A DNA stretch of 38,296 bases, taken from an uncultured delta proteobacterium (GTDB taxonomy: Bacteria > Myxococcota_A > Polyangia > Polyangiales > Ga0077539). A model generated the notes under the pieces. It was not told the DNA's origin. It did no database searches and was given only the letters and a program-made list of their open reading frames with translations. The stretch spans positions 1 through 38,296 of the forward strand of contig CAISKJ010001284.1 of NCBI GenBank assembly GCA_903885885.1, written 5' to 3'. This document shows positions 2,987 to 35,730 of this stretch, piece after piece; position 1 is the first letter of the stretch; every line of letters begins with the position of its first letter. The translations under genes were made by a program, and so were the position numbers.

Positions 2987-6592
<3,606 letters not shown>

Positions 6593-8185: not shown

Positions 8186-8333
8186 CCGTTGCGACCTCGC
8201 GGGGTCGATGCCCGATCTGCGGGCGCGAACGCAAATTTTTTGCACGCAGTTTTCGACAGGAGCTCCAGAGCTTCGCGAAAATCGCGGATCTCGCGGGTTG
8301 TGCTCCGGCGCGTGCCTGTGCTCAATCGTCGCG

Positions 8334-8789
8334 ATGGACGCCGCCCGACGCGCGACGCTCGCTGGTCTCGCGTGGCTCGCCGTGCAGTTCGCGGTGCCCC
8401 TGGCGCGCATGGACCCGTCGCGGAGCCCGCCCTTCTCGCCGCGCTTCTCGTGGAGCATGTTCGCGGGGCGTCCGCTCGCGACGTGCTCGCACGACCTCGC
8501 GTGGAGCACCCCCGAGGGTGAGCGCCTCGCGATGCCCCTGCCTCCCGCGACGAGCCCGGTGCACCGGATTCTCACCGCGCGTACTCCCGACGAGTTTCGC
8601 CGTGTTGTGCCCCTGCTCACCGCGTACGCCGACTCCGACGCGGTGGTCATCACCGCGCTGAACGACCTGTTGAATAGGCACAAGCGCGCGGTCGACGCAC
8701 GCGGTCGCTACGTGCTCACCAGCACCCTCGTGTGCCGCACGTTCGAGGGGGAGATGCTGCGTCGTACGCTCCGTCTGGGGGCCCCGTGA
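8334..8789 (+). CDS. Hypothetical membrane-anchored/secreted protein coupled to the HTTM gene
   Basis: Start chosen at MDAARRATLAGLAWLAVQFAVPLA (hydrophobic N-terminus). Its TGA stop overlaps the GTG start of the next gene (GTGA at 8786-8789). Confidence 0.5.
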   Translation: MDAARRATLAGLAWLAVQFAVPLARMDPSRSPPFSPRFSWSMFAGRPLATCSHDLAWSTPEGERLAMPLPPATSPVHRILTARTPDEFRRVVPLLTAYADSDAVVITALNDLLNRHKRAVDARGRYVLTSTLVCRTFEGEMLRRTLRLGAP

Positions 8790-10173: not shown

Positions 10174-10359
10174 GTGGGCGATCGACGCAATCACCGCATC
10201 TCTCTGCTTGACGACACCACAGGTGCCGTTTTTGTGGAGTACGTGTCGGTGCTGCTCCTGGTCGGCACGATCACGGCCGCAGCGACTTATTCGCTCGGGC
10301 GGCCTCTCGTCGACTACTACCGTTTCGCCCAGTTGATCCTGGCGTTGCCCTTCCCCTGA
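10174..10359 (+). CDS. flp: Flp-family prepilin (atypical, copy 1)
   Basis: 61 aa. LLDDTTGAVFVEYVSVLLLVGTI matches the Flp motif (leader, G/xxxxEY, hydrophobic helix). GTG start. The C-terminus is hydrophobic (QLILALPFP). Confidence 0.6.
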   Translation: MGDRRNHRISLLDDTTGAVFVEYVSVLLLVGTITAAATYSLGRPLVDYYRFAQLILALPFP

Positions 10360-10406
10360 AGGCTTCGCACACACATTTCGCAACGATCGTGAAAGGAACC
10401 GCCACC

Positions 10407-10586
10407 ATGAAGAAGAACAACCGCTCGCTGGTCCGCAACACCGAAGGTCTCTCCACGGTCGAGTACGTGATCCTCCTCATGCTCATCGCTGTGGTGGGCA
10501 TCGTTGCGTGGCGCACCTTCGGTAACACGGTGGTCGGCAAGATCAACGCGGGCAACAGCCAGATCTCGGGTCTCGGCGGCACCTGA
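10407..10586 (+). CDS. flp: Flp-family type IVb/c prepilin (copy 2)
   Basis: MKKNNRSLVRNTEGLSTVEYVILLMLIAVVGIV has the classic Flp processing motif G/LSTVEY plus a hydrophobic helix. AAAGGA RBS lies about 10 nt upstream of the ATG at 10407. The track ORF starts 18 nt earlier at a GTG. Confidence 0.85.
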   Translation: MKKNNRSLVRNTEGLSTVEYVILLMLIAVVGIVAWRTFGNTVVGKINAGNSQISGLGGT

Positions 10587-10688
10587 TCCGCAAAGGCGCT
10601 GTCGCCGACGGCATCGCTCGGCGGCTCGAACGATGCGCCGCGGCTTCCGCAGGGGAGTCCGCGGCGCGCGCGATTTGGAGGGTCTCTT

Positions 10689-11285
10689 TTGGTCGTCTGG
10701 GTGCCTCGTCTCTGCATCCTCCTGTGCGTCGCCATCGCTGCGATTGGCGCGTGGACGGACTATCGCACCCGACAGATTCCAAACTGGCTCACCCTCGGTG
10801 GCATTGTCACCGGTGTCGCGCTCCAGAGCATCGCGGGACACTTCCAGGTCGAAGACCTTCAGTACGGTGGGCAAACGGCCCTCTCCGGAGTCGCACACGC
10901 GATCCTCGGCGCGGTAGTTTGCGGGTTGCCGCTGTGGGCCCTGTTTCGTAAGCAGATCCAGCGCGAAGACGGCACGCTCGACCAGGTTTCGGGCGGCGGC
11001 GACGTGAAGATCCTCGCCGCGATGGGGGCCCTCCTCGGGCTGTATCACGGGCTCGGGCTGGAGTTTCTCTGCCTCGCTGCGACGTCGGTGCTCACGCTCG
11101 CGCGCCTTGCCTGGCATGGGCGACTTCTGCGGGTGCTCTCGAACGCGCTGTTTCTCACACTCAACCCCATTCTTCCGAAGAAATGGCGGCGTCGCATCAC
11201 GGCGGAACTCCTTCACAAGGTCCGCATGGGCGTCCCCATTCTGGTCGGAACTCTGATGTTCGCCGTCAACCGGCTGGCCTGGTGA
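10689..11285 (+). CDS. cpaA: Prepilin peptidase, A24 family (CpaA/TadV)
   Basis: Polytopic protein with AWTDYRTRQIPN (first catalytic Asp region) and GGGDVKILAAMGALLG (second Asp, GxGDxK motif). TTG start at 10689 or GTG at 10698. Confidence 0.85.
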   Translation: MVVWVPRLCILLCVAIAAIGAWTDYRTRQIPNWLTLGGIVTGVALQSIAGHFQVEDLQYGGQTALSGVAHAILGAVVCGLPLWALFRKQIQREDGTLDQVSGGGDVKILAAMGALLGLYHGLGLEFLCLAATSVLTLARLAWHGRLLRVLSNALFLTLNPILPKKWRRRITAELLHKVRMGVPILVGTLMFAVNRLAW

Positions 11286-11309
11286 TTGCCAGTTCGTGAG
11301 GAAGAACCG

Positions 11310-12305
11310 ATGGCACCGCACACGATCGACCCCGCTCCCCGCTCCCTTCGGAAGAACACCGATGGAGCCGTGTATGTGGAGTTTCTGATCGTCTTCATCC
11401 CGTTCTTCATCATGGTTCTGGGCATGATGCAGATCGCGCTCATGTACGCTGCGCACCTTGCGGTGCAGCACGCCGCGGCGTCTGCCGTGCGCGCGGCCAT
11501 CGTGGTGTTTCCCGACTGCGAAGCCCGCTATGATGGAGCCGCGCAGAACGACGTGAACGGCGGCGGGCGCGGCGAAGACCCCGCTTCGATGCTCGCTTCC
11601 GTGTTCGGCGCCGGTGGAGGAGCGAGCTTCCCGGGGCTCGGGGGCGGGAGCGGGGGTGGTGGAGGTGGCGCGCGCCTCGACACGATTCGCTTCGCAGCCA
11701 ATCTCCCGCTTGTCGCGGCCTCGCCGTCACTGCAAGAACTCGAGGGCGACGCTTCGCCTGCGCGGCAGAACCTCCTGGGTGCCATCGGCGGCACGACCTC
11801 GCCCGCCGTGCGCCTCGCGCTCGGCGCCCTCGGCTATAACAACATCGCCGTCGCGATCAACTTCCCCAACATGCCCAACAGCGCGAGCGCAACGTTTCAA
11901 ACGCGCCTCGCAGCGCGTGCGCCCCTCACGGCGCGCGTTACGTACCTGTTTCACTGCGGTGTTCCCATCGTGTCGGCCATGGCCTGCGACGACGCGATCT
12001 CTGTGTTCAGCGGCGTCCCATACCGTCAGGTGGCGCAGCTCGCGCGCTCGCTCTCCGCGGGGCACATCCGTGAGTCCGAGGGCCTCGAGACCGCGCGTCG
12101 TGAGGCCTCTACCCGCTTGCGTAGAGCAGACTACAACCTCCTGGCGCGCGAGCTCGATGCGACCGCTGCTGGGGCAGGCTTGTCGGCGGCGTTCCTCACG
12201 CTCTCGCGCGGCAACTACTCGATCATGCGCGCCGAGGCGACGCTGCCCCTGCAAGGCACGCAGAGCGCCCGCATCCAACGCCCCTGTTTCAACGTCCGGC
12301 GATGA
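11310..12305 (+). CDS. TadE-like pseudopilin with Gly-rich insert
   Basis: The N-terminus DGAVYVEFLIVFIPFFIMVLGMMQI is TadE-like (Gxxxx-E plus hydrophobic helix). Gly-rich tract GAGGGASFPGLGGGSGGGGGGA. GAGGAAG RBS precedes the ATG at 11310. Confidence 0.7.
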   Translation: MAPHTIDPAPRSLRKNTDGAVYVEFLIVFIPFFIMVLGMMQIALMYAAHLAVQHAAASAVRAAIVVFPDCEARYDGAAQNDVNGGGRGEDPASMLASVFGAGGGASFPGLGGGSGGGGGGARLDTIRFAANLPLVAASPSLQELEGDASPARQNLLGAIGGTTSPAVRLALGALGYNNIAVAINFPNMPNSASATFQTRLAARAPLTARVTYLFHCGVPIVSAMACDDAISVFSGVPYRQVAQLARSLSAGHIRESEGLETARREASTRLRRADYNLLARELDATAAGAGLSAAFLTLSRGNYSIMRAEATLPLQGTQSARIQRPCFNVRR

Positions 12306-12829
12306 AAATCTCAGCGCACGCAGGTGATGCCGTGACCCCCAAGAACGCCCCCCACGCGCCTCGGAGCCGCCGTAGACAACGCGGTGCAGCGTATGCCGAG
12401 ACTGTGGTCATGCTGCCCTTCTTCATCGCCGTGTGGTCGTGCATCATCTATGTGCACAACGCATACGCCGAGAAGGTTCGCCTTATGGCAGTGAACCGCA
12501 ACTGCGTGATGACCTACGCTTTCGATGCGTGCGAGCGCACGCCGCCGGGGTGCACGCTCACCCGCGGCGCATCGGGGGGTGAGGGTCCAGGGGAAGTAGG
12601 CGGCTTCGTCGGTGCACTGGGTAGCTTCGGGAGTGGAATTCTCACTGCGGTCACTGGGGCGAGCGTGAGCTCGCGCATGACCTCGTCGGTTAGCAAGCCG
12701 CGCGCGCTCGGCGGCGGCGGCACGAGCGTGCTCGTGGGTAATTCGATGCAGTGCAACACGCGCTACCAAGACAGCCCTGTGCGTTCGCTCGCCGCGGGCT
12801 TCTGCAGCTTTATCGGCATCGGCTGCTGA
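12302..12829 (+). CDS. TadE/TadG-like pseudopilin
   Basis: RGAAYAETVVMLPFFIAVWSCIIYV is a TadE-like N-terminal motif. ATGA start/stop overlap with the upstream gene. Confidence 0.65.
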   Translation: MKISAHAGDAVTPKNAPHAPRSRRRQRGAAYAETVVMLPFFIAVWSCIIYVHNAYAEKVRLMAVNRNCVMTYAFDACERTPPGCTLTRGASGGEGPGEVGGFVGALGSFGSGILTAVTGASVSSRMTSSVSKPRALGGGGTSVLVGNSMQCNTRYQDSPVRSLAAGFCSFIGIGC

Positions 12830-12859
12830 GCGACGATTCGAACGAGGAGACACTCCCCA

Positions 12860-13801
12860 ATGCGATCCCGCTTTCGGCACCTCCCCCACGCCACCCGCCT
12901 CGCCGCTTTCGTCGGCCTCGGCCTCGCGGTGACCTCCATCGCAGCGATGCGCCAGGCGCGCGCGCAGATGCACGAAGGCATGCGACATCTTGCGCGGCAA
13001 CTCATGCCCTACGCCGAGCAGGGCGTGATCGAGGCTCCGCGGCGAGTAGAGATCAACGGCGAGTCGCTCTACCTTGCGATGGGGACGACGCACGATGGCG
13101 TCACCGCCGCGCTCGACTACTACGAATCGTGGTGCGATCGCCGCGCCGGGCACGTGACCGAGTCGGTCGCGCAGTCTGATGGTTCGGCGTTCGGTTCGCT
13201 GTGGTCATCGGGGGGGCGGCTCGGCACGCGCCTCGAGATGGTGCGCGAGGGCGACGAGAGCGAGGGCTACGTCATCTGCGTCGACGTGGGCGATCAGCGT
13301 CTTACAGGTGCAGAACTCGGGCAACGCTTGCGCGCGGTGGTCGACACGGGCGACCTTTCACGCTGGGGCAACCTCCGCTACGCCTACGTGCAGCGGGCGT
13401 CGACCGGTACGCGCATCATCACCGTGGCCACCGACGGCAGGTTCAACCTCTTGCGCATGTTTCCTAGCGAGGGCGACGCACCGGGTGAAGACACGCCGGG
13501 CCTCGCGCGCTTCCCTGGCATGCGTCGCGTGCTCTCGGCCCACGAAGACGGGCACGCCAACAACCTCGGCGTGTACTCCGCGCGGGCCCCCATCGCAGAC
13601 GTGCGTGGCTGGTACCGCTCGGAGATGGCTCGTCGTGGGTGGTCGCTCTCCGACGTGCCCGCCACCGTGCGTCTGCCCGCTGCGGCGGCCAACCACCGAG
13701 ACCGCTCGCTCACGTTCTCGCGCGGCAACGACGCCACCCTGGTGCTCGTGTTCGACCACGCGGACGGCATCACGTCGATGATGTCCCTCGCGGCGCTCTA
13801 A
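12860..13801 (+). CDS. Hypothetical exported/membrane-anchored protein inside the Tad locus
   Basis: 313 aa. N-terminal hydrophobic segment LAAFVGLGLAVTSIAAM. GAGGAG RBS. No motif I recognise. Confidence 0.5.
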   Translation: MRSRFRHLPHATRLAAFVGLGLAVTSIAAMRQARAQMHEGMRHLARQLMPYAEQGVIEAPRRVEINGESLYLAMGTTHDGVTAALDYYESWCDRRAGHVTESVAQSDGSAFGSLWSSGGRLGTRLEMVREGDESEGYVICVDVGDQRLTGAELGQRLRAVVDTGDLSRWGNLRYAYVQRASTGTRIITVATDGRFNLLRMFPSEGDAPGEDTPGLARFPGMRRVLSAHEDGHANNLGVYSARAPIADVRGWYRSEMARRGWSLSDVPATVRLPAAAANHRDRSLTFSRGNDATLVLVFDHADGITSMMSLAAL

Positions 13802-13859
13802 ACACCCCTCGATCATAACGCTGCGTCGATGCGACGCGGGCCGCGGTTGCCGTTGTGTC

Positions 13860-13874
13860 TGGCACTGACTTTGG
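13860..13874 (+). promoter_or_regulatory. Weak sigma-54-like element upstream of cpaB
   Basis: TGGCAC-TGACT-TTGG has a perfect -24 box and correct spacing, but the conserved -12 GC is GG. It lies in the 168-nt gap about 95 nt upstream of the cpaB ATG. Confidence 0.2.
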
Positions 13875-13969
13875 TCTAGTGTCTCCGCGCCTGCGACGGT
13901 ATCCGCGGCGGCGGCGCCGCGCTCGGCGCACGCATCGGCCAACGCGCGGCATCGGTTGAGGGTGATTGG

Positions 13970-14806
13970 ATGAACACGAAGGCGCTTTTCATCGCGATCG
14001 GGGCTGCGGTTCTCGGGCTCGTGTTCTTGCTCATGTACAAGAAGCGTTTCGAAACCGAGGCGTCGGGTGGCACACCCATCCCCGTGCTCGTAGCGGTGCA
14101 AGACATTCCCCTGGGCACCGCGCTCACCGAGACAATGCTCGGGCAGAGGTACATCCCGCAGGCCTACCTCGAGGACCGCTTCATCCGTTACTCCGACCTT
14201 CGTCGCATCGTGGGCGTGCGCGTGAGCATGGGCCTCAAGGCCAACCAGACCGTCATGTGGACCGACCTCGCCACGGCCTCCGACGCGCGCCGCGACCTGT
14301 CGAGCCTCGTGAGCAACGGCATGCGCGCCATCACGGTGCGCGCTGACATCACGAACTCGTTCGGCGGCCTGCTGCGCCCGGGCGATCGCGTCGACGTGCT
14401 CGGTACGCTCTCGCGTACGGGCGGCGAGAACGATCGCGTGACCATTCCGCTGCTCCAGAACGTGCTGGTGCTTGCCGCAGGGCGTGACACGGGCGGTGAG
14501 GCGCAGCGCCAGCAGGTGAACGGTCAGTCGAACCCGTCGAACCAGCCGCAGGACATCTCGCAGGTGACGCTCAGCGTCTCGATGGAAGAGGCGCAGCTTC
14601 TCACGTACGTGTCCGATCGCGGCGGGGCGAGCGGGCGGCACACGGGGCTCACGCTCGTGCTGCGCAACCCCGAAGACATCGCCATCATCGAGAACGTCCC
14701 CGAGACCGGCATCGATGACATCTTCGAGCCCGTGCGTCGCCAGCAGATCTCGCGTCGTCGCCGCCAGATCATCGAGCGCATCGGCCCCAGCAACCCGAAC
14801 CCGTAG
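13970..14806 (+). CDS. cpaB: Flp pilus assembly protein CpaB/RcpC
   Basis: N-terminal TM helix, a SAF-like segment (VLVAVQDIPLGTALTETML...) and an RcpC/CpaB segment (GMRAITVRAD...GGLLRPGDRVDVLGT). Confidence 0.85.
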   Translation: MNTKALFIAIGAAVLGLVFLLMYKKRFETEASGGTPIPVLVAVQDIPLGTALTETMLGQRYIPQAYLEDRFIRYSDLRRIVGVRVSMGLKANQTVMWTDLATASDARRDLSSLVSNGMRAITVRADITNSFGGLLRPGDRVDVLGTLSRTGGENDRVTIPLLQNVLVLAAGRDTGGEAQRQQVNGQSNPSNQPQDISQVTLSVSMEEAQLLTYVSDRGGASGRHTGLTLVLRNPEDIAIIENVPETGIDDIFEPVRRQQISRRRRQIIERIGPSNPNP

Positions 14807-14845
14807 CCTCGCACGAACCTCATCGAGGAGCCGCCGAAGACCGCC

Positions 14846-16189: not shown

Positions 16190-16250
16190 GACAAGCTGTC
16201 CTCTCGCGGGCGCCGCGGCGCCGCTGCGTAGAGGGCGCCGCAAGGAAGCG

Positions 16251-18029
16251 ATGGATCAGGTCCTCCTCTCGATCGAGACGCCCAACTCCCCTCCGATGAC
16301 CTACATGGTCCCGTCGGGCGGAGAGATCTCAATCGGGCGCGACGAGACCTGCACCGTGGTGCTCGCCTCGCCCGACATCTCGCGTCGGCACGTGAACATC
16401 AACATTCACCCGCAGTCGATCGTCGTGCGCGACTCGTCGAGCAACGGTACGCAGGTCGGCACGCAGCGGGTGTTTCGCTCCGAGCTCCCAGTCCCCTTCG
16501 GCACGCCCATTCAGGTGGGGCCGTATGTGATCCGCGTGATTCGGCAGGGCGCGCAAAACGCGGCCGCCGCGCCGCCGCCGGGGGCCGTGCCGCCTCTTCC
16601 GCCGGTGCCAGGTCGTGGGCCCAACCCCATGGGGCAGACCATGGCTGCGGGTGCCAACGGCGCGCCTCGTCGCAACGTGCCCACCATGATGCCCGGGCAG
16701 GGCCCGCCGGGCATTCCGCAGGGGCCCGCCGCGCCCACCGCGGCCGCGCCGTCGGGCGGCACGATGCACGTCTCGGTGGAGCTGCGGCGACGCATCCACC
16801 GCATGCTGCTCGACCACATGGACCTCGCGGTGCTCGACCGCTCCAAGATGGCCGACAACATGATGCGGCCGAAGGTGCGCGAGGCCCTCAAGCGCATCAT
16901 GGCGCAGGTCGCGCAGGACCTGCCTCCGGGCACCGATCAAGAGCAGCTGATGCAGGAGATGGCCGACGAGGCGCTGGGCCTCGGGCCCCTCGAGCGCTTT
17001 CTGGCCGACGGCACCATCTCAGAAATCATGGTGGTCGATCCGCACACGATCTTCGTCGAGAAGCGCGGCAAGCTCGTGCGGGCCGAGGCGCGCTTCACCG
17101 ACGACGAGGCCGTGCGAAGCTGCATCGAGCGCATCGTGACGCCCCTCGGTCGGCGCATCGATGAGAGCACGCCGCTCGTCGACGCCCGCTTGAAAGACGG
17201 CTCGCGCGTCAACGCGGTGATCAAGCCCCTGGCCATCAAGGGCGCATGCATCACCATTCGTAAGTTTTCGAAGACTCCGCTGGGCTTGAACGACCTTGTG
17301 GGCTTCGGCTCGCTCACCGACCAGATGGCGCGCTTTCTTACGCGCTCGGTGATCGCCAAGAAGAACATTGTGATCTCGGGCGGCACGGGCTCGGGCAAGA
17401 CCACGCTGCTCAATGTGCTCTCGGGCGCCATCCCGAAGGACGAGCGCATCATCACGATTGAAGACGCGGCGGAGCTGCAGCTCAACCAGCCGCACGTGGT
17501 GTCGCTCGAGTCGCGCCCGGCCAACATGGAGGGCAAAGGCGAGTACACGATTCGCGACCTCGTAAAGAACGCGCTTCGTATGCGCCCCGACCGCATCGTG
17601 GTGGGCGAGTGCCGCGGCGGCGAGTGCCTCGACATGCTCCAGGCGATGAACACGGGCCACGACGGCTCGCTCACGACGACGCACGCCAACTCGCCGCGCG
17701 AGGCCATCAACCGCCTCGAGGTGCTCGCGCTCATGTCGGGCATCGATCTCCCCGCGCGCGCCATTCGCGAGCAGATTGCCAACAGCGTGCACCTCGTGGT
17801 GCAGCAGTCGCGCTTCTCCGACGGTTCGCGCCGCGTCACGTGGATCACCGAGGTGATCGGCCTCGACGACAACTTCGAGATCCAGCTCCGGCCCATCTAC
17901 GAGTTTCTTCGCAGCGGCACGGGGCCCGACGGCAAGGTGCTCGGCGAGTACCGCGCGACGGGGTATCTCCCGTCGTTCCTCGATGTGTTCATCTCGCTCG
18001 GCCTCGTGCAAGGGAGGGACTATTTGTGA
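16251..18029 (+). CDS. cpaF: FHA-domain-fused Tad secretion ATPase (CpaF/TadA family)
   Basis: N-terminal FHA-like core (ISIGRDETCTVVLASPDISRRHVNINI...VVRDSSSNGTQVGTQRV). Pro/Ala/Gly-rich linker. ATPase with Walker A GGTGSGKTTLLN, Asp box IITIEDAAEL and His box NTGHDGSLTTTHAN. Confidence 0.9.
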   Translation: MDQVLLSIETPNSPPMTYMVPSGGEISIGRDETCTVVLASPDISRRHVNINIHPQSIVVRDSSSNGTQVGTQRVFRSELPVPFGTPIQVGPYVIRVIRQGAQNAAAAPPPGAVPPLPPVPGRGPNPMGQTMAAGANGAPRRNVPTMMPGQGPPGIPQGPAAPTAAAPSGGTMHVSVELRRRIHRMLLDHMDLAVLDRSKMADNMMRPKVREALKRIMAQVAQDLPPGTDQEQLMQEMADEALGLGPLERFLADGTISEIMVVDPHTIFVEKRGKLVRAEARFTDDEAVRSCIERIVTPLGRRIDESTPLVDARLKDGSRVNAVIKPLAIKGACITIRKFSKTPLGLNDLVGFGSLTDQMARFLTRSVIAKKNIVISGGTGSGKTTLLNVLSGAIPKDERIITIEDAAELQLNQPHVVSLESRPANMEGKGEYTIRDLVKNALRMRPDRIVVGECRGGECLDMLQAMNTGHDGSLTTTHANSPREAINRLEVLALMSGIDLPARAIREQIANSVHLVVQQSRFSDGSRRVTWITEVIGLDDNFEIQLRPIYEFLRSGTGPDGKVLGEYRATGYLPSFLDVFISLGLVQGRDYL

Positions 18030-18895
18030 ACCCCTCGGCGCAGACCACGCTCATGGGCTGGATGTCGGTGCTTCTCCTCGCGGCGGGCGTCGCGGTGGCG
18101 ATCTACATCACCCTCACCGACCCCGAGAGTTTTCTCGCGAAGCTCTACGCCGACTACGTGAAGCACCTCGACGCCGAGCTGCGCGGGCTGTTCATTCAAG
18201 AGCCCACGGGGCGCACCATCGCCAACTGGCAAATCGGCGCCGCGGTGGCCATCGTGACGGTCCACGTGATGGCCGAGCAGCCCGTCGCGTATCCGCTCAT
18301 CCCCTTCGTGGCCATTCTGCCCAAGATCTGGCTTATTGACGCGAAGACCAAGCGACAAGACAAGATCGAGCAGCAGCTCGACTCTTTTCTGACCGCCCTC
18401 GCCAACGCGCTCAAGGCCTCGCCCTCGCTCGGCGACGCGATGGGCAACACGGCCACCCTGCTGCGCTCTCCGTTGAAGGAAGAGCTCGAGCTCACCATGA
18501 AGGAGACGCAGCTCGGCATGCCGCTCGACCAGGCCATTCTCAACATGGGCGGCCGTGTGGGGTCGCGGGCCTTCGCGGGCGCGCTCACCACGGTGCTCAT
18601 CGGTCGGCAGACGGGCGGCGACCTCCCGCGCATCCTCGAGACGTCGGCCTCCACCCTCCGTGAGATGGCGCGCCTCGAGGGCGTCGTGCGCACCAAGACC
18701 GCCGAGGGCAAGGCGCAGGCGTGGGTGCTCGGCGTGATGCCCCCCATTCTCATCGGCATTCTCAACTGGATCGACCCCCAGTGGCTCACGCCCCTCAACA
18801 CCACCTTCATCGGTGGGATCGTCTGGCTCGTGGCCGTGCTCTTCTGGATCGCCGCGGTGTTCCTCGCGCGCAAGATCCTCTCGGTCGACATCTGA
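18026..18895 (+). CDS. tadB: TadB-like inner-membrane platform protein (T2SS-F family)
   Basis: GTG start overlaps the cpaF stop (GTGA at 18026-18029). TM helices plus a T2SSF-type cytoplasmic domain (LDSFLTALANALKASPSLGDAM...). Confidence 0.8.
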   Translation: MNPSAQTTLMGWMSVLLLAAGVAVAIYITLTDPESFLAKLYADYVKHLDAELRGLFIQEPTGRTIANWQIGAAVAIVTVHVMAEQPVAYPLIPFVAILPKIWLIDAKTKRQDKIEQQLDSFLTALANALKASPSLGDAMGNTATLLRSPLKEELELTMKETQLGMPLDQAILNMGGRVGSRAFAGALTTVLIGRQTGGDLPRILETSASTLREMARLEGVVRTKTAEGKAQAWVLGVMPPILIGILNWIDPQWLTPLNTTFIGGIVWLVAVLFWIAAVFLARKILSVDI

Positions 18896-18919
18896 GGGCG
18901 CAGGCGTAGGAGACCCCCA

Positions 18920-19834
18920 ATGGGCATGACACCCGTCACCGCGCTGTTCTTCTACCTCTCCCTGGCGCTCTGCGTGCTGGGCTTCGGGGTCTTCGTCTAT
19001 CAGCTCGCCCTCACTCCGGCAGATATTCAGCCCGATGTGGGCATCAAGGGCCTCAAGCGACAGGCCGTGCTCGATGAGGGTGGTCCCTTCAACACCGTCG
19101 AGCCCCTCATGCGCTGGCTCGCCACGCGCATCGCCGCGCTGCCCATCGCCGACATGCGCGAGAAGGTCAACGCGCAGATTCGCCACGCGGGCGAGTATCT
19201 CGGTCTCACCGCCGACGAGTACCTCGCGCTCTGCGTGCTGGGCTCGCTGGGCTTCGCCCTCTTCGGCTTCGTGGTCGATTATCTGGCCCCCATCGGCGGC
19301 GTGTTCGTGCTGATGTTCGCGGCCTTCGGGGCCATTCTTCCGCACATGCAGCTGTCGGGTGAGATCGAGCGGCGCTTCACGCAGGTGAACCGCGGTCTGC
19401 CCTTCGCCATCGACCTCGTGGCCCTCACCATGAGCGCCGGGTTGGACTTTCCCGGCGCCCTCCGTCAGGTGACCGAGAAGACCTCGGACAAGAACGACGC
19501 GCTCTACGAAGAGATGCAGCGCATTCTGCAGGAGCTCGAGCTGGGGCGCACGCGCAAGCAGGCGCTCCTCGCCTTCGCCGACCGTTGTCCCACCGAGGCT
19601 GTGCGCGATTTCGTCTCGTCGGTGGTGCAGGCTGAGGAGAAGGGCAACCCCCTCGCCGACGTGCTCCAGATTCAAGCCACCATGCTTCGCATGCGACGCA
19701 GCGTGGCCGCGGAGGAGAGCGCGGCGCGCGCGGGCGTGCTCATGATGGGCCCGCTGATGCTCATCTTCGCGACCATCATGCTCATTATTCTGGGGCCCTT
19801 CGCCGTGAACATCATGTCAGGCCACGGGATCTGA
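18920..19834 (+). CDS. tadC: TadC-like inner-membrane platform protein (T2SS-F family)
   Basis: AGGAG RBS. T2SSF-type region RGLPFAIDLVALTMSAGLDFPGALRQV flanked by TM helices. Confidence 0.8.
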   Translation: MGMTPVTALFFYLSLALCVLGFGVFVYQLALTPADIQPDVGIKGLKRQAVLDEGGPFNTVEPLMRWLATRIAALPIADMREKVNAQIRHAGEYLGLTADEYLALCVLGSLGFALFGFVVDYLAPIGGVFVLMFAAFGAILPHMQLSGEIERRFTQVNRGLPFAIDLVALTMSAGLDFPGALRQVTEKTSDKNDALYEEMQRILQELELGRTRKQALLAFADRCPTEAVRDFVSSVVQAEEKGNPLADVLQIQATMLRMRRSVAAEESAARAGVLMMGPLMLIFATIMLIILGPFAVNIMSGHGI

Positions 19835-19850
19835 CAGGGAGCGCACCTCA

Positions 19851-20744
19851 ATGCCCACGCCGCAGCTCGATGTCTACCTCCCCGATGGAACGGTGCAGAA
19901 CTTTCCCCTCACCGACGAGCGCGTGGTGGTGGGCACGTCGACCAAGTGCCAGGTGATGATCGATCGGCCGGAGCTCGCGCCCGAGCACCTGCTCGTCTCG
20001 CCTCGGCCCGACGGGTGTTGGGTCGCCGTCGCGCGCGGGGTGGCCACGCCGACGATCGTCGACAACATGCCCTTCGAACGCGGCATGGTCACCTGGGGCA
20101 AGACCATTCAGGTCGGTCAGGTGCGCATGGTGCTCGCCGACGGCACCCGCGCGAAGAGCAACGCCAACAAAGACAAGGACAAGAAGGAAGAGAAGGTCTC
20201 TCCGGTCATTCTCGGGGCCGCCGTGATCGTGCTGGGCCTCGCCGGGTGGATGCTTCTCACGGAGCCGGGCAACCTCGCGCCGCCGAGCCGCGTGTCGACC
20301 CCGCCGCCGGCCCTCTTCGACGACCTCAACCGCCCGTGCCCGCAGGCCGACCCGTCGCTCATCGTGTCGACCGCCGAGGAGAGCACGCGCATCGCCCTCT
20401 CGAAGGCCGAGCGCATGCCGTTTCGCACGCAAGACGGCGTCGAGGCCGTGACGTACTACGCCCAGGCCGGGTCGTGCTACCGCGCCGCGGGCAACGCCGA
20501 GGCCTCCACCGAGGCGATGCGCCGGGCCAACCTGCTGCGCGCCCGCCTCGAGGAGGAGTACACGGCCCATCGCTTTCGCCTCGAGCGCGCGCTCGAGCAG
20601 ACGCGCTACGAAGACGCCCTCTACGAGGTGAAGATGCTCACGGCGCTCGTGACGCACCGCCGCGGGCCGTACCTCACCGCCCTCAACACGCTCGAGCGTC
20701 AGCTCACCATTCGCATCGATCAGGCCGCTGCCGCGAACCGGTAG
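19851..20744 (+). CDS. FHA-domain membrane protein with helical (TPR-like) C-terminal domain
   Basis: FHA-like N-terminus (RVVVGTSTKCQVMIDRPELAPEHLLV...VDNMPF...IQVGQVRMVL). Lys-rich linker, one TM helix (VILGAAVIVLGLAGWMLL), and a helical repeat-like C-terminus. Confidence 0.75.
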   Translation: MPTPQLDVYLPDGTVQNFPLTDERVVVGTSTKCQVMIDRPELAPEHLLVSPRPDGCWVAVARGVATPTIVDNMPFERGMVTWGKTIQVGQVRMVLADGTRAKSNANKDKDKKEEKVSPVILGAAVIVLGLAGWMLLTEPGNLAPPSRVSTPPPALFDDLNRPCPQADPSLIVSTAEESTRIALSKAERMPFRTQDGVEAVTYYAQAGSCYRAAGNAEASTEAMRRANLLRARLEEEYTAHRFRLERALEQTRYEDALYEVKMLTALVTHRRGPYLTALNTLERQLTIRIDQAAAANR

Positions 20745-20767
20745 CGCTGGTGAACAGGCACATCTCC

Positions 20768-21271
20768 ATGTCGTTGCTTCGCTCGCGTCTTCGCTCTCTC
20801 GCCACCCTCGCGCTCGCGGTCGGCGCGCTCTCCTCGAGCGGCTGCGCGCCCGAGGTCTCGCTGTGTCAGGTCGACGGCGCCCTGCTCGGCACCGACCTCT
20901 ACGTCAACATCGTGGGGTATGTGCGCGTGTACGGCGAGGAGCCCTACGAGGGCCGCGCCACCGTGGCCATTCTCGACAGCGGCGGCCGCACCGTCGCCGG
21001 CGGCACCACCCGCACCTACGATCTCATCGAGTCGGGCGGGAGCTATGTGTGCGTGTACACCGTCGAGCGCAGCGGCGAGGCCTCGCAGCGCCGCCTCGGC
21101 ATCGGGCCCTTTCCGATGGCCATGGTGGGCAACGTGCGCGGCCTCTCGGTGCGCCTCACCATGAACGACCGCAGCGGCAACACGCAGACGGTCACCCTGC
21201 CGCTCTCGCGCGTGCGCGAGGTCGACGAGATGCCGAACTTCAACTGCGGGTCGACCCACTGCGGGCGATGA
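20768..21271 (+). CDS. Lipoprotein, unknown function
   Basis: MSLLRSRLRSLATLALAVGALSSSGC is a signal peptide plus lipobox. An alternative GTG start lies at 20749. Confidence 0.6.
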   Translation: MSLLRSRLRSLATLALAVGALSSSGCAPEVSLCQVDGALLGTDLYVNIVGYVRVYGEEPYEGRATVAILDSGGRTVAGGTTRTYDLIESGGSYVCVYTVERSGEASQRRLGIGPFPMAMVGNVRGLSVRLTMNDRSGNTQTVTLPLSRVREVDEMPNFNCGSTHCGR

Positions 21272-21346
21272 GCCAGCGCCCCTTCGCAACCCGTCGACGC
21301 GATCTACACGACTCCATCGAGCGCGGTGTATAACCGCCGCGCTCGG

Positions 21347-21928
21347 ATGAACGTCACCGCTCGAACCCTCGCGCTGGCACTCGTCGCGCTCGCTCCGTGC
21401 GGCGTCGGCTGCGCCGCGCGCGCCGCGCAGCAGGGGCCCACGACGGACCCCATGGCCAGCGTTACGGCGCAGCAGCTGTACGACACGGGCCTCGCGGCCG
21501 CGCGCGCGGGCGACCTCGTGCGGGCCGAGCAGTACCTCGTGGCGTCGATGCAGCGGGGCATGCCCGAGCCCCGCGTGCTGCGTCAGCTCGTGAGCGTGTG
21601 CGTGCAGGCCTCGCGCTTTCGCGCCGCGGTGGCGTACGCGCGGCCCTACCTCGAGCGGCACCCGCACGACTGGGCGCTGCGGTACCTCCTGGGCACCATT
21701 CTCGAGGGGCTCGACGAGCACCAGTCGGCGCGGCGCGAGCTCGAGGCGGTGATCGCCGACAACGCGCGCCACGCCGAGGCCCACTTTCTCCTCGCGACGC
21801 TGCTGCGAGAGCGCTTCAACGACCCGGTGAGCGCAGACGTGCACTTCCGGCAATACATCGAGATCGCGCCCGATGGCTCGCACGCCGAAGAGGCGCGGGC
21901 AGGGATGCTGAGGCAGGTCGGGCAATGA
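21347..21928 (+). CDS. TPR-repeat lipoprotein (TadD-like candidate)
   Basis: MNVTARTLALALVALAPCGVGC (lipobox) followed by TPR-like helical pairs (AQQLYDTGLAAARAGDLVRAEQYL..., AEAHFLLATLL...). The track ORF starts at a GTG at 21326. Confidence 0.6.
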   Translation: MNVTARTLALALVALAPCGVGCAARAAQQGPTTDPMASVTAQQLYDTGLAAARAGDLVRAEQYLVASMQRGMPEPRVLRQLVSVCVQASRFRAAVAYARPYLERHPHDWALRYLLGTILEGLDEHQSARRELEAVIADNARHAEAHFLLATLLRERFNDPVSADVHFRQYIEIAPDGSHAEEARAGMLRQVGQ

Positions 21929-23088
21929 TCCCCAAAGAGGTCTACGAAGAGACGCTGCTGTCGTTCCTGGCGCCGATCAGGCCCTTTCTCGACGACCCGA
22001 AGGTCTCCGAGATCATGATCAATGGGCCCAACCAGATCTACATCGAGAAGTCGGGGCGGCTCACCCTCACCGAGGCGCGCTTTCCGAGCCTCGAGGCGCT
22101 CAACTCGGCGCTGCGTAACATCGCCCAGTTTGTAGGCAAGATGGTCGACGAGGATCACCCCATTCTCGAGGCCCGCCTGCCCGACGGCTCGCGCATCGAG
22201 GCCATCATTCCGCCGGCGGCGCCCGACGGGCCCGACGTGGCCATTCGCCGCTTCTTCAAAGAGACGCTCACCGTGAAGCGCCTCGTGGATTTTGGCTCGG
22301 TCACCCCCGACTGCGCAACGGTGCTCGAGTGCCTCGTGGCGCTCAAGCAGAACGTCGTGGTGGCCGGCGGCACGGGCTCAGGCAAGACCTCGCTCCTCAA
22401 TGCGCTCGGGTCGTTCATTCCCGACGGCGAGCGCATCGTGATCATCGAAGACAGCCGCGAGGTGCAGCTCCAGCGCGAGCACGTGGTGCAGCTCGAGGCG
22501 CGGCCCGGCGACGCCAAGGGCAAGGGCAAGGTCGCCATTCGCGACCTCTTTCGCGCGACCCTTCGTATGCGCCCCGACCGCATCGTGGTGGGCGAGATCC
22601 GCGGCGGCGAGGCGCTCGACCTCGTGCAGGCCATGACCTCGGGCCACGGCGGCTGCCTCACCACCGTGCACGCGACGTATCCCCACGACACCCTCACGCG
22701 CCTCGAGACCATGGCGCTCATGAGCGATGTGGAACTCCCGCTGTCGGCCTTGCGCATTCAGCTCGCGAGCGCGATCAACATCATCGTGCAGACGTCGCGC
22801 CTCGCCGACGGCTCGCGAAAGATCACGCACGTCTCCGAGGTGCGCGGCTACGACCCGAATCAGGGCTTCAAGATCGTCGACCTGTACCTTCGCAAGTTTC
22901 AGGGCCGCGACGAGCAGGGCAACCTCATCTCGACGCTCGAGCCCACCGGCGAGATGCCCCTGTGCACCGAGACCGTGCACTCGTACGGGATGCAGTTTCC
23001 TGCTTCGTTTTACGAGGCCGCGCGCGTGCGCGCCGAGATGGGCGGCGGCGAGGCGTGGTCGCAACACCAAGAGGGAGGGCACCACTGA
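21925..23088 (+). CDS. Second secretion ATPase (CpaF/VirB11/T2SS-E superfamily), no FHA domain
   Basis: ATGA overlap with the upstream gene. Walker A GGTGSGKTSLLN, IVIIEDSREV, and His box TSGHGGCLTTVHAT. 387 aa with a short N-terminal domain. Confidence 0.85.
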   Translation: MIPKEVYEETLLSFLAPIRPFLDDPKVSEIMINGPNQIYIEKSGRLTLTEARFPSLEALNSALRNIAQFVGKMVDEDHPILEARLPDGSRIEAIIPPAAPDGPDVAIRRFFKETLTVKRLVDFGSVTPDCATVLECLVALKQNVVVAGGTGSGKTSLLNALGSFIPDGERIVIIEDSREVQLQREHVVQLEARPGDAKGKGKVAIRDLFRATLRMRPDRIVVGEIRGGEALDLVQAMTSGHGGCLTTVHATYPHDTLTRLETMALMSDVELPLSALRIQLASAINIIVQTSRLADGSRKITHVSEVRGYDPNQGFKIVDLYLRKFQGRDEQGNLISTLEPTGEMPLCTETVHSYGMQFPASFYEAARVRAEMGGGEAWSQHQEGGHH

Positions 23089-24668
23089 TGGCCTCGCCCG
23101 CGGCGCCTGGCGCGCAGAGCAACACCATCTCGCTCACCATCGTGCAGGGCGAGAGCGCCAACCCCACGGCCACCTTCACGCAGGCCATGGCGGCCCGCAT
23201 GGTCTCCGTCGGCAGCGGCCCCAACGCCCATTGGAAGATCCGCGGACAGGGCGTCGAGGCCCTCCACGCCGAACTCTACTGGGACGGCAACGTGCTCTGG
23301 GTTCGCAACGGCGGCAGCCTCGGCGGCACCTACGTGAGCTCGCAGCGCGCCGACGATTGGACGCAGGTGTTCGACGGCACCGAGATCCAGGTGGGCGCGG
23401 TGCGCATCGCCTCGAAGGTCGTGGGCCCCGACGCGCGCAACCCCGCGGGGGCCGCCCCCGGCGCGTCGTCGCGCAGCGCGGGCTACATCGACGAAGAAGA
23501 GAGCACCATGGTGTTCTCTGCCCAGATGGTGCTCGACGGCGCCGCGGCGCCCATGGCCAGGCCCTCGAGCACGGCCCCGGTGCCGCAGCCCGCGCAGCCC
23601 GCCCCGGCGCGCGGCAGGGCGGGCACCATGGCGCCTCCCGTGGCGATGCACGCGCCCAACAAGCTCGGCCCGCAAGGCCCCGCGGCGTCGGCGCCCGCGA
23701 CGGCCTCGGCGCAGCCTCCGGCGCCCGCCCACGACGACGACGACGAGCCGCAGAAGCCCGCCTCGTCGGAGGCGACGGTGATCCGCGCGTCGCCCTACGC
23801 GGCCCTCGAAGCCGCGGGCATGCTCGGGCCGTTGCCGGCCGCGGGCAATCGCAACCCCATGCCCCTCGATCAGCGCACGATCGCGCCGGGGGCGCTCAAC
23901 GGTCCGTCGTCGGTGGTGGTGTCGCAGTCGGCCGTGTCGCTCCCCGCGATGACGCCGCAGGGGATGCGGCCGGGCACGATGCCGCCGCAGGTGTCGGCCT
24001 CGCTGCAGCCCGTGCAGTCGATGCCGCCGATGAACATGCAGCCGCAGCAGGGGATGTCGCAGCCCGGCGTGTCGCAGCCGGGCGCCTACGACGACCCCTT
24101 CGGCCCGATGGACATTCCCCCGCCCAGCGCCTCGCAGAGCGGCGAGAAGACCGTCGCGGGCACCTCGCCGCGCACGCTCATTCTCGCGGGGATCACCCTC
24201 GTCATCGGGCTCATCGCGGCCATCATGCCGCCGCCCAACCAGCAGCCTCGCAACGCCCCGGCGCGCCCGCAGCCGCAGGTGCTCACCGTCGGCGCTGCGC
24301 CTCCCACGACGAACAACATCTTGCAGTTGCCCATCTCGGAGCCGGGCCTCGTCGGGGTGATCGTGCCCGCGCCCATCCCGATGACCGACGCGCAGGGGCA
24401 CCCGCGCGCGGTGCCTCCGCCCAACCCGCAAGATCCCATGAAGCTCGCCGCCGAGGCCGTGGCGGCCAACCGCTACGCCGACGCGATGGTGCTCTACGAG
24501 CGCCTTGCGGCCGAGCACCCCGAGGCCCCGCTGTTTCGCCAATTCGCGGCCGTGCTTCGCGCGCGCGTCAACTCGATGAACTGCCAGCCAGGAGCGCCAG
24601 GATGCATCCCGTCGAACGCCCCCGTTCCGCCCTCCGTGCAGCCGCCCGGGGCGCGACCCTCGCCGTAG
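23088..24668 (+). CDS. FHA-domain protein with Pro/Gln/Met-rich low-complexity region, TM helix and TPR-like C-terminus
   Basis: ATG overlaps the ATPase stop by 1 nt. FHA-like core (MVSVGSGPNAHWKIRGQGVEALHAELYWDGNVLWVRNGGSLGGTYV). Low-complexity P/Q/M-rich stretch (PQGMRPGTMPPQ...MNMQPQQGMSQPGVSQPG). TM helix LILAGITLVIGLIAAIM. Confidence 0.75.
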   Translation: MASPAAPGAQSNTISLTIVQGESANPTATFTQAMAARMVSVGSGPNAHWKIRGQGVEALHAELYWDGNVLWVRNGGSLGGTYVSSQRADDWTQVFDGTEIQVGAVRIASKVVGPDARNPAGAAPGASSRSAGYIDEEESTMVFSAQMVLDGAAAPMARPSSTAPVPQPAQPAPARGRAGTMAPPVAMHAPNKLGPQGPAASAPATASAQPPAPAHDDDDEPQKPASSEATVIRASPYAALEAAGMLGPLPAAGNRNPMPLDQRTIAPGALNGPSSVVVSQSAVSLPAMTPQGMRPGTMPPQVSASLQPVQSMPPMNMQPQQGMSQPGVSQPGAYDDPFGPMDIPPPSASQSGEKTVAGTSPRTLILAGITLVIGLIAAIMPPPNQQPRNAPARPQPQVLTVGAAPPTTNNILQLPISEPGLVGVIVPAPIPMTDAQGHPRAVPPPNPQDPMKLAAEAVAANRYADAMVLYERLAAEHPEAPLFRQFAAVLRARVNSMNCQPGAPGCIPSNAPVPPSVQPPGARPSP

Positions 24669-25351
24669 CGTTGCTGCCCGTGCTCGGCGCGGGCTGCGGC
24701 ACGCAGCAGGGGCCCACGCTCTTTCCCATCACCCTGCGCGTGATGAGCGACGCGCGCCCCATGCCCGGCGCGCAGATTCTCATTCGCGACCGTGCGCAGG
24801 GCACCACCGACGCGCAGGGGTCGTTTCGCATGCGCATGACGGGCGTCGAGGGCGGCACCGTGCCCGTGACCGTGCGCTGCCCCAACGGCTTCGTCTCGCC
24901 CGCGGAGCCCGTCCCCGTCGCGCTGCGCTCGTCGATCGCCATCGACCGGGCCGCCCACGCCGCGGGTGGCATCGAGACGACGGTGCAGTGCCCTCCCGAC
25001 CAGCGCATCGCCGCGGTGATCGTGCGCACGCCCAACCGCGCCAACCTCCCGGTCTTCTATCAAGGCAGAGAGATTACGCGCACCGACCTGCAGGGCGTGG
25101 CGCACATGATCTTCAAGGTGCACCCGCGCGACGTGCTGATGTTTCGCGTCGACACCACCGCGCAGCCGCAGCTGCGACCGGCCAATCCCACGTTCAACGT
25201 CGCGACGCGCGAGGGCGACGACGTGTACGTGAGCACGCTCAACTTCGAAGAGGCTGCGGCTCCGCGGGTGGTGCGTCGCTCGACGGGCGGCGGCGGGCCG
25301 ATCATTCGTCGCATTCCGCCCGGGCGCGGCGGTGGCGGCGGGTTCTTCTGA
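24602..25351 (+). CDS. Lipoprotein with carboxypeptidase-regulatory/transthyretin-like beta-sandwich segment and Gly/Arg tail
   Basis: MHPVERPRSALRAAARGATLAVALLPVLGAGC (lipobox). ITLRVMSDARPMPGAQILIRDRAQGTTDAQGSF pattern. The C-terminus is RRSTGGGGPIIRRIPPGRGGGGGFF. The start overlaps the upstream gene by 67 nt in another frame. Confidence 0.65.
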   Translation: MHPVERPRSALRAAARGATLAVALLPVLGAGCGTQQGPTLFPITLRVMSDARPMPGAQILIRDRAQGTTDAQGSFRMRMTGVEGGTVPVTVRCPNGFVSPAEPVPVALRSSIAIDRAAHAAGGIETTVQCPPDQRIAAVIVRTPNRANLPVFYQGREITRTDLQGVAHMIFKVHPRDVLMFRVDTTAQPQLRPANPTFNVATREGDDVYVSTLNFEEAAAPRVVRRSTGGGGPIIRRIPPGRGGGGGFF

Positions 25352-25357
25352 CATCGC

Positions 25358-25831
25358 ATGGGAGGGCCGCGCACGATCACCCGGAGGGGGGCGCTAACGC
25401 TGGCGCTGGCGTTGGGCTGCGCGCGCGAGCGTGAGCCCGCGACGCCGGGTGAGACCGTGGCCGCGATGGTGAGCGCGCTCGAGCAGTCGGCGGGCGACCC
25501 CACGGCGCGGCGTCGGGTGTTCGCGCTGCTCTCGCACCGCGCGCAGGCCTCCCTCGAGTCGCGCGCGGCGCGGGCCTCACAGGTTTCGGGGCGCACCTTC
25601 GACGCGTGGGAGATGCTCGCGCCGGGGCGCGTGCGCATGCACGTTCAGTTTGACCCGGGCTCGATCTCGACGCGGATCGAGGGCGAGCGCGCCATGGTGA
25701 CGGCGCGGGGGCGCGCGGGGGGCGTGGCCGACATTCCCCTGGTGCGCGAGGCGGGACACTGGCGGGTTGATCTCAGCCTGCCTGACGCGGTGGCACCGCG
25801 CGGCAACGACCCGCGGCCCGACGCCCGGTAG
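25358..25831 (+). CDS. Small lipoprotein, unknown function
   Basis: RRGALTLALALGC is a lipobox. It is the last co-directional gene of the block, 6 nt after the previous stop. Confidence 0.55.
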   Translation: MGGPRTITRRGALTLALALGCAREREPATPGETVAAMVSALEQSAGDPTARRRVFALLSHRAQASLESRAARASQVSGRTFDAWEMLAPGRVRMHVQFDPGSISTRIEGERAMVTARGRAGGVADIPLVREAGHWRVDLSLPDAVAPRGNDPRPDAR

Positions 25832-34229: not shown

Positions 34230-34250
34230 CTGAGCTCGTGCCCCTCCGCG

Positions 34251-35045: not shown

Positions 35046-35078
35046 CGGTGCGACTCCTGTGGAGATGGCCGGAGGGCG

Positions 35079-35714: not shown

Positions 35715-35730
35715 CAGTCTCTCCCTCCCG

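Follow-up and report, generated by a model that had tools for sequence, protein, structure and literature searches.

A predicted two-module Tad/Flp pilus locus with an FHA-CpaF motor and a second, short CpaF paralogue in an uncultured Polyangiales myxobacterium

What kind of machine is encoded by a pilus locus that has two CpaF-family ATPases and three FHA-type proteins, and in which TadZ/CpaE is missing? According to the current definition, a Tad pilus is driven by one ATPase, which is responsible for extension as well as retraction of the fibre; allosteric, rotary and inversion models of this bifunctional enzyme appeared in 2024–2026. Loci in which a second, minimal CpaF paralogue is accompanied by partners of its own provide a natural experiment on how a Tad ATPase extends and retracts. 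We analyzed such a locus at positions 10174–25831 of a 38,296-bp contig with ~68% G+C from an uncultured Polyangiales myxobacterium; the whole contig is referred to as the window. The best explanation overall, to which we assign a probability of about 0.6 on the basis of sequence comparisons, is that the locus encodes a Tad/Flp machine of the FHA-CpaF ('Kil-like') class in two modules. Its 18 genes (g01–g18, Table 1) can be read as one operon-like locus consisting of module A (g01–g12) and module B (g14–g17). The four-gene module B is the distinctive part of the locus and the feature most worth following, and a limited literature search returned no published description of an in-operon CpaF without the N1 domain that has FHA/transmembrane (TM) and lipoprotein partners.

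Genes were called by frame analysis of third-position G+C (GC3) together with a listing of open reading frames (ORFs). Domains were assigned with Pfam, NCBIfam was also used, and lipoboxes and signal peptides were judged by eye. Exactly 18 genes, all on the plus strand, were found between 10174 and 25831, with start/stop overlaps of the ATGA type at 12302 and 21925, of the GTGA type at 18026 and of the TGATG type at 23088. The co-directional block and the overlapping ATGA/GTGA junctions reported in a preliminary description of this DNA were thus recovered, with the TGATG junction in addition. The block contains two Flp prepilins, an A24 peptidase, two TadE-like minor pilins, CpaB, a secretin, an FHA-CpaF motor, TadB, TadC, a second CpaF-family ATPase, two more membrane proteins of the FHA-like type, and four lipoproteins, of which one has TPR repeats. 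This inventory agrees well with the one proposed before. Pfam supported the A24 peptidase, CpaB, secretin, CpaF, TadB and TadC as well as the second ATPase (g15, T2SSE without FHA), and the three FHA-containing proteins were identified as g09, g12 and g16, with one FHA domain sitting in the CpaF motor itself. The TPR lipoprotein corresponds to g14 and the three further lipoproteins to g13, g17 and g18, while both Flp prepilins showed the processing motif G/XXXXEY followed by a hydrophobic helix. The claim of two TadE-like pseudopilins was substantiated by Pfam for g04, and g05 counts as a minor pilin by its N-terminal motif only. With Flp pilins, an A24 peptidase, an ATPase with two T2SSF proteins, a secretin with CpaB and TadE minor pilins, the block is, as judged from its sequence, a complete Tad/Flp (type IVc) pilus gene set.

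The main motor, g09, is composed, from the N- to the C-terminus, of a canonical FHA domain, a linker of ~80 aa, NTD1 and the CpaF ATPase core. Residues 102–578 match Caulobacter CpaF (9e24, E=2e-112), the alignment beginning at CpaF residue 5. The N-terminal half is colinear with a Myxococcaceae KilF fragment, both having an FHA domain, a low-complexity linker and the NTD1 helices in this order (E=1e-13). Of 111 FHA-CpaF homologues, 109–110 kept the phosphothreonine (pThr)-binding signature GR...S[RK]xH...SxNG[TV], as did the KilF fragment. A canonical pThr-binding FHA on the motor implies an input from a Ser/Thr kinase; for Kil, a coupling of assembly to Ser/Thr phosphorylation through the FHA of the motor has been proposed (PMC8460266). 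The nearest named relatives of g09 were found in metagenome-assembled genomes (MAGs) of Polyangiales and Sandaracinaceae and in Sandaracinus amylolyticus. Just downstream of module B, Ser/Thr kinase genes are present in Sandaracinus (L001, 14044–17967) and in locus L008 (13561–15852), and they are candidates for the kinase acting on the motor's canonical FHA; at this position the window has an arginine decarboxylase gene on the opposite strand.

The absence of a ParA-like TadZ/CpaE, noted earlier from the sequence, was borne out by domain and motif scans covering the contig and 28 related loci. No ParA/MinD domain was detected by Pfam in any ORF of the 38,296-bp contig, no TadZ-type motif K/RGGxGxS/T occurred in any of its real ORFs, and a narrower ParA/MinD motif was absent from the window and from the 28 related loci. 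A TadZ domain hidden inside another gene was ruled out by the negative motif scan.

An FHA fusion on the motor together with the absence of TadZ is listed as a distinguishing signature of the prey-killing Kil apparatus of Myxococcus xanthus, the authors also naming many FHA proteins and a single ATPase (PMC8460266). Kil is encoded by cluster I (MXAN_3102-3108: an FHA protein, the KilA peptidase, the KilC secretin, the KilF FHA-ATPase, and KilD with FHA and TPR) and cluster II (MXAN_4648-4661: two FHA proteins, KilH, KilG, KilB, pilins and minor pilins), and TadG, RcpB and TadD are lacking (PMC8460266). The earlier description of Kil as an FHA-rich system split over two clusters was hence accurate. 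The single-locus layout of the window does not set it apart: the split is called 'a unique situation', and the core Tad genes are contiguous in Bradymonas and Bdellovibrio (PMC8460266), so a single locus is the norm outside Myxococcus.

Our direct comparison with Kil covered cluster II, through the Myxococcaceae-type homologue L028, and the Myxococcaceae KilF fragment. L028, which carries frameshifts, was reached by a search with a chimeric KilF + KilH fragment, the matches being ≤260 aa and mostly fragments. Its genes are arranged as CpaB, T2SSF, T2SSF, FHA and FHA, after which come exonuclease VII and further housekeeping genes, with minor pilins and a 72-aa Flp on the other strand; no TPR gene and no second ATPase were found after its FHA genes. 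In the same order, g07, g10 and g11 showed 36, 35 and 38% identity to their L028 counterparts, and the gene order of the window is that of Kil cluster 2 with cluster 1 genes inserted. The 72-aa Flp of L028 matched g01 from end to end (BLASTP, E=0.001), both ending in LPFP. The match of g04 to the TadE protein of L028 was weak (E=2e-4), and the pairwise BLASTP comparisons of g05 and g06 with L028 were not significant.

The locus thus resembles M. xanthus Kil in the FHA domain at the N-terminus of a CpaF-type motor of the same colinear layout, the lack of TadZ, a secretin of the Pil_N + Secretin type, FHA genes that come after CpaB-TadB-TadC in this order, a small Flp with LPFP at its C-terminus, and the phylum Myxococcota. 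The FHA accessories of Kil lie beside platform genes (MXAN_4648/4649, KilD); g12 and g16 agree with them in position and domain type but show no homology beyond the FHA fold and have lost the pThr-binding residues. In contrast, Kil is distributed over two or more clusters and the window has one locus. Kil has a single ATPase and no TadD-like pilotin (PMC8460266), whereas the window encodes a second CpaF paralogue with three partner genes, among them the TPR lipoprotein g14. In addition, the FHA accessories of the window are degenerate and those of the Myxococcaceae locus look canonical, the homology being limited to the FHA fold.

The relationship of the motors was evaluated in a bootstrapped neighbour-joining (NJ) tree based on the 360 columns that represent CpaF from 32 taxa in the published Kil supermatrix, extended by g09 and g15 and by the counterparts of both in Sandaracinus and Pendulispora. 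The published taxon set contained no Polyangia, and the tree represents one protein by NJ, a weak basis for placement, and not the four-protein analysis of the Kil paper. The three long Polyangia motors formed a clade with 100% bootstrap, sister to Bradymonadales (71–79%) and then weakly to Bdellovibrionales (36–52%). The M. xanthus KilF clade joined a beta/gammaproteobacterial group in 291/300 replicates, and the alphaproteobacterial (Caulobacter) and Desulfovibrio-type motors were distant from the long Polyangia motors. The g15 family formed a deep clade of its own (100% bootstrap). With both ATPases placed in this tree, as had been proposed, g09 falls with Bradymonadales and not with KilF, and g15 by itself. 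The idea that the locus is a relative of the Kil class therefore held in part: the KilF architecture of the motor, the colinear CpaB/TadB/TadC and the absence of TadZ agree with it, whereas the motor does not group with KilF (0%). The converse expectation, a core falling entirely with adhesive Tad systems next to a CpaE gene, did not hold either, as the motor was nearest to Bradymonadales and no CpaE was present. Kinship to Myxococcus Kil lies at the level of the class and not of an orthologous accessory set; in broad terms, it is reasonable to class the locus as a Kil-like Tad machine that lacks CpaE.

The g09 ATPase core was 63% identical in sequence to the motors of Shewanella and Burkholderia, 62% to KilF of M. 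xanthus, 61% to the Bradymonas motor and 49% to that of Caulobacter. A core about as similar to beta/gammaproteobacterial Tad motors as to KilF would also suit an ordinary adhesive or surface-sensing Tad pilus with lineage-specific regulators, whose resemblance to Kil reflects shared myxobacterial ancestry and not predation. The same reading would accommodate accessory proteins g12 and g16 that are not homologous to those of Kil, carrier organisms that are uncultured MAGs, and the short secretin, which is normal in adhesive Tad systems too: Pseudomonas aeruginosa RcpA, among the best matches to g08, has 426 aa. However, the combination of FHA-motor fusion and missing TadZ is that of the Kil signature, and Bradymonadales, the nearest ATPase clade, have been described as Kil-like predators (PMC8460266). 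Although an ordinary pilus is the most credible of the alternatives, we consider it somewhat unlikely.

The accessory protein g12 consists of a degenerate FHA domain of the YscD/PrgH type, a single TM helix and a periplasmic domain that is all-helical and TPR-like, in which the family alignment revealed two invariant cysteines and an ERxPF motif. A single-sequence AlphaFold2 (AF2) model was confident only for the helices at 168–296, and a Foldseek search with it gave no match below E=0.08, the non-significant ones being generic TPR-like repeats. In g16, a degenerate FHA domain is followed by a Pro-rich linker of ~250 aa, a TM helix and a conserved C-terminal domain. The pThr-binding signature was found in 0/12 members of the g12 family and in 0/12 members of the g16 family; the two FHA proteins of L028 are canonical by eye. 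BLASTP and hhalign profile comparisons of g12 and g16 with the latter revealed no similarity outside the FHA fold.

The locus is not singular, and the window carries one member of a widespread, already sequenced family of Polyangiales loci. The order CpaB, secretin, FHA-CpaF, TadB, TadC, ~290-aa protein, ~210-aa TPR protein, short CpaF and ~540-aa protein recurs in two species whose genomes are complete, Sandaracinus amylolyticus (CP011125) and Pendulispora albinea (CP089984), and the locus type was also present in about 20 Polyangiales MAGs. A comparative study of 2023 had already described Tad(kil) homologues from genera of the Polyangiales, Sandaracinus among them (PMC10196010). When the 18 window proteins were compared by tblastn with 27 fetched loci, g05–g17 were colinear in Sandaracinus amylolyticus and 11 MAG loci at 28–99% identity; Pendulispora albinea has g07–g16 in order without g13, and g17 upstream. 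As named species with complete genomes, both offer a way to test the system if they prove tractable. The same two-ATPase Tad locus is carried by L021 (OZ243942.1), a complete chromosome of 3,531,598 bp. Myxobacterial genomes are usually much larger, and the size hints at a lineage with a reduced genome in which the locus has been retained.

The second motor, g15, is made of N2D and CTD only and aligns to residues 149–490 of Caulobacter CpaF, the best solved-structure match for both ATPases. Its identity was 46% to the g09 core and 45–51% to every other CpaF. The short-CpaF family showed 64–98% identity over 22 Polyangiales genome loci, recovered by a genome scan with exact peptide patterns that returned close Polyangiales relatives only, and comprised at least 120 protein clusters with identities down to 67%. 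In a search of 1.8 billion representatives, g15 recovered essentially one 50% cluster, with everything else at ≤55% identity. Walker A was kept in 117/119 and Walker B in 119/119 family members. The short ATPase is under strong purifying selection, and a decayed pseudo-ATPase was ruled out by the intact Walker motifs.

The partners of g15 are conserved with it. Among 25 related loci carrying the short ATPase, g14 lies directly before it in 24, detached copies included (in the remaining locus, L003, the sequence ends just upstream of the short ATPase), and g16 follows it in 23 as judged by tblastn; in Sandaracinus, an unmatched 542-aa gene occupies the g16 position. The g16 start overlaps the g15 stop by one base, which suggests co-translation. 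The last conserved gene of module B is g17 (32–98% identity by tblastn), whose AF2 model was unusable (predicted local distance difference test, pLDDT, 36). For g14, NCBIfam gave weak matches to PilW, Tgl and BamD, all far below the cut-offs, and the protein is possibly pilotin-like. In a detached copy of the module in L008 (7482–10004, plus strand), the TPR lipoprotein is replaced by an 840-aa protein whose C-terminal ~110 residues are the TPR part and whose N-terminal 700 residues have no Pfam match.

The genes g14-g15-g16-g17 travel together and stay joined when detached from the pilus genes. Module B stands alone among unrelated, metabolic genes in six loci (L008, L012, L013, L018, L019 and L023), where its neighbours include amylase, acyl-CoA dehydrogenase and FGE-sulfatase genes, and in L027 a 7-kb insertion separates it from TadC-g12. 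This arrangement would be expected if the module were an independent envelope machine or regulator that is unrelated to the pilus and merely adjacent to it in the window, in which case the finding would reduce to one more uncharacterised Tad locus. Against such independence, the module directly follows TadC-g12 in 14 of the 25 loci, including those of the distant Sandaracinus and Pendulispora, and the short ATPase has only CpaF proteins as its closest relatives. Moreover, no activity is known for a CpaF-family hexamer that lacks a T2SSF platform, and among the related loci examined module B never contains a T2SSF platform or a secretin gene. We regard independence as the least probable of the explanations considered. 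Since module B has no platform or secretin of its own, g15 would work on TadB/TadC.

Retraction ATPase genes are commonly unlinked from pilus operons, as is the case for pilT loci, and the detached copies of module B match this pattern. One possibility is that g15 arose by CpaF duplication as a dedicated retraction or auxiliary motor like PilT/PilU, with the FHA-CpaF extending the pilus and the N1-less paralogue retracting it. The architecture of g15, its intact catalytic motifs and its lack of a platform of its own are consistent with this, and the same domain difference parts PilT from PilB (bioRxiv 10.64898/2026.02.24.707734). The likeness to the type IVa system is an analogy only: in both cases one of two paralogous hexameric ATPases has extra N-terminal domains and the other N2D and CTD, but g15 belongs to the CpaF and not to the PilT family. 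Arg387 of Caulobacter CpaF (R387) is needed for retraction, and its equivalent was conserved in ~80% of the long motors and relaxed in the short clade, being present in only ~31%. Furthermore, loss of NTD0 lowers rather than raises retraction in Caulobacter (PMC11300603), in M. xanthus, where no motor besides KilF is known, the Kil pili retract (PMC12075869), and the extra TadA paralogues of Bdellovibrio are dispensable for predation (bioRxiv 10.64898/2026.07.08.737194). Hence, we find a dedicated retraction motor improbable. We are similarly doubtful of a more specific version, in which an FHA-gated full-length CpaF extends the fibre and a tethered N1-less CpaF serves as a retraction or power-boosting motor on the same TadB/TadC platform; if true, this would make the locus a naturally occurring departure from the 'one bifunctional ATPase' rule that defines Tad pili, and an independent parallel to PilB/PilT.

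For the Kil-like, two-module machine that we prefer, the following mechanism can be proposed. The A24 peptidase would cut the two Flp prepilins, and the minor pilins would prime the fibre. The pilus would be polymerised by the TadB/TadC platform with the FHA-CpaF hexamer and carried through the envelope by CpaB and the short secretin. Without TadZ, placement and activation would depend on the FHA of the motor and on the bitopic scaffold g12, the motor FHA coupling assembly to Ser/Thr phosphorylation. Both g12 and g16 may serve as PrgH/YscD-like inner-membrane scaffolds that replace TadZ in motor positioning. Module B would provide an auxiliary motor that docks on this TadB/TadC platform, with g16 as its tether or regulator. 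We infer, rather than observe, a dynamic pilus, a replacement of TadZ by FHA/kinase signalling and an action of module B on module A, and a role in contact-dependent killing is likewise presumed. Several observations weigh against this scheme. The long Polyangia motors and M. xanthus KilF grouped in 0/300 bootstraps of the ATPase-only NJ tree, and g12 and g16 have no homology to Myxococcus-type FHA partners beyond the fold. As these two proteins lack the pThr-binding residues, 'FHA signalling' may apply to the motor alone. The action of module B on the platform of module A is argued from adjacency and the missing platform only; in six loci there are no pilus genes within 10 kb of module B, and the relaxed R387 equivalent misfits a simple 'short = retraction motor' idea.

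Other Tad systems share parts of this organization. All core families (Flp, TadV, TadE/F, RcpC, RcpA, TadA, TadB/C) are common to the window and the canonical Tad/Cpa systems of Caulobacter and Aggregatibacter, which use TadZ/CpaE for localisation and one bifunctional ATPase (PMC6920026). In comparison, the window is without TadZ, encodes two CpaF-family ATPases and three FHA-type proteins, and has an ATPase core only 49% identical to Caulobacter CpaF. Bradymonas sediminis (DN745_00680-00700), compared by published gene order and ATPase sequence, has a contiguous CpaB-secretin-ATPase-TadB-TadC (PMC8460266 Supplementary file 2). Bdellovibrio bacteriovorus has a predator-associated Tad system with an N-terminally extended motor, the extra paralogues tadA2 and tadA3, and TPR and FHA genes nearby (bioRxiv 10.64898/2026.07.08.737194). 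However, the motor extension is a TadZ (ParA-like) domain in Bdellovibrio and an FHA domain in the window. The Bdellovibrio paralogues are located in other loci, tadA2 with a second secretin in an rcpA2-tadA2 module that is dispensable for predation (bioRxiv 10.64898/2026.07.08.737194), whereas g15 lies within the operon, has no N1 and is accompanied by FHA/TM and lipoprotein partners. The 'Kil-like', predator-associated class would thus be more diverse than the Myxococcus model, with scaffolds that are not homologous between lineages and with a motor gating that differs: FHA in the window and in Myxococcus, TadZ in Bdellovibrio.

The remaining genes of module A are mainly pilin and envelope genes. 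Neither g01 nor g02 matched Pfam, and g01 had no match in NCBIfam either and gave a weak GC3 coding signal. We nevertheless regard g01 as a real gene because an Flp pair is also present upstream of the homologous locus of a distant relative (L022), where one member ends in ...FFPVP and the other has a Gly/Ser-rich tail. The latter type is represented in the window by g02, a candidate major pilin with a 37% tblastn match in L022. The peptidase g03 (198 aa) has the GGGDVK motif and no methyltransferase domain, and g04 showed an additional weak Pfam match to Tad (TadE/G-like). The start of g05 overlaps the g04 stop (ATGA); g05 was without a Pfam match and showed 29–80% identity in relatives (tblastn). 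No Pfam or NCBIfam match was obtained for g06, which is always located between the minor pilins and CpaB and showed 28–79% identity in Sandaracinus and MAG loci. The secretin g08 had no Secretin_N/N0 match in Pfam, and its best solved-structure relatives are the Tad secretins 8jvb and RcpA 8odn. The GTG start of g10 overlaps the g09 stop. Two lipoprotein genes that belong to neither module were limited to the closest relatives by tblastn, g13 (no Pfam or NCBIfam match) to L004–L007 and g18 to L003 and L005–L007.

Table 1 Genes of the Tad/Flp locus, with coordinates in the 38,296-bp window.
Gene	Assignment	Position	Strand	Basis
g01	Flp-type prepilin, 61 aa	10174..10359	+	G/AVFVEY motif, C-terminal ...ALPFP
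g02	Classical Flp prepilin, 65 aa	10389..10586	+	G/LSTVEY motif, Gly/Ser-rich tail
g03	TadV/CpaA/KilA-type prepilin peptidase	10689..11285	+	Pfam PF01478, E=2.8e-14
g04	TadE-like minor pilin, 339 aa	11286..12305	+	Pfam TadE, E=3.3e-7
g05	Putative TadE/F-like minor pilin, 175 aa	12302..12829	+	N-terminal G/AAYAE + hydrophobic motif only
g06	Secreted protein, 313 aa	12860..13801	+	Signal peptide by eye
g07	RcpC/CpaB/KilB alignment protein	13970..14806	+	Pfam RcpC, E=3e-22, plus SAF
g08	RcpA/CpaC/KilC secretin, 447 aa	14846..16189	+	Pfam pil_N + Secretin
g09	Main motor FHA-CpaF, 592 aa	16251..18029	+	Pfam FHA + T2SSE
g10	TadB/CpaG/KilG platform protein	18026..18895	+	Pfam T2SSF
g11	TadC/CpaH/KilH platform protein	18920..19834	+	Pfam T2SSF
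g12	Bitopic inner-membrane protein	19851..20744	+	Pfam Yop-YscD_cpl, E=4e-6, below curated cut-off
g13	Lipoprotein, 167 aa, lineage-specific	20768..21271	+	Lipobox by eye
g14	TPR lipoprotein, first gene of module B	21326..21928	+	Pfam TPR_16/19/14
g15	Second motor, short CpaF, 387 aa	21925..23088	+	Pfam T2SSE, E=3e-57
g16	Degenerate-FHA/TM protein	23088..24668	+	Pfam FHA, E=5e-8
g17	Lipoprotein, 249 aa	24602..25351	+	Lipobox by eye; CarboxypepD_reg-like, E=2e-4, below cut-off
g18	Lipoprotein, 157 aa, lineage-specific	25358..25831	+	Lipobox by eye

Promoter and terminator scans gave signals at chance level, and Rfam and tRNA scans gave no matches. The locus is flanked by genes for an HTTM protein, a DNA methylase, a CoA-enzyme activase and the arginine decarboxylase, and farther away by LysM, DUF4123 and phosphotyrosine phosphatase genes. 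The gene for the HTTM-domain membrane protein (8732–9943, plus strand) immediately precedes the Flp genes, shares their strand and is separated from them by 230 nt. On the minus strand, a 628-aa N6/N4 DNA methylase (6797–8683) and a 1201-aa fusion of two BcrAD_BadFG ATPase domains and DUF2229, of the CoA-enzyme activase type (2987–6592), appear unrelated to the pilus locus. Also on the minus strand are a 1242-aa protein with Pfam matches to LysM and LEM-like domains (30501–34229), a 264-aa ORF (34251–35045) and a DUF4123 protein identified by Pfam (35731–36411). Because DUF4123 is a family of effector chaperones of the type VI secretion system (T6SS), the region 30501–36411 may be a T6SS effector/adaptor island.

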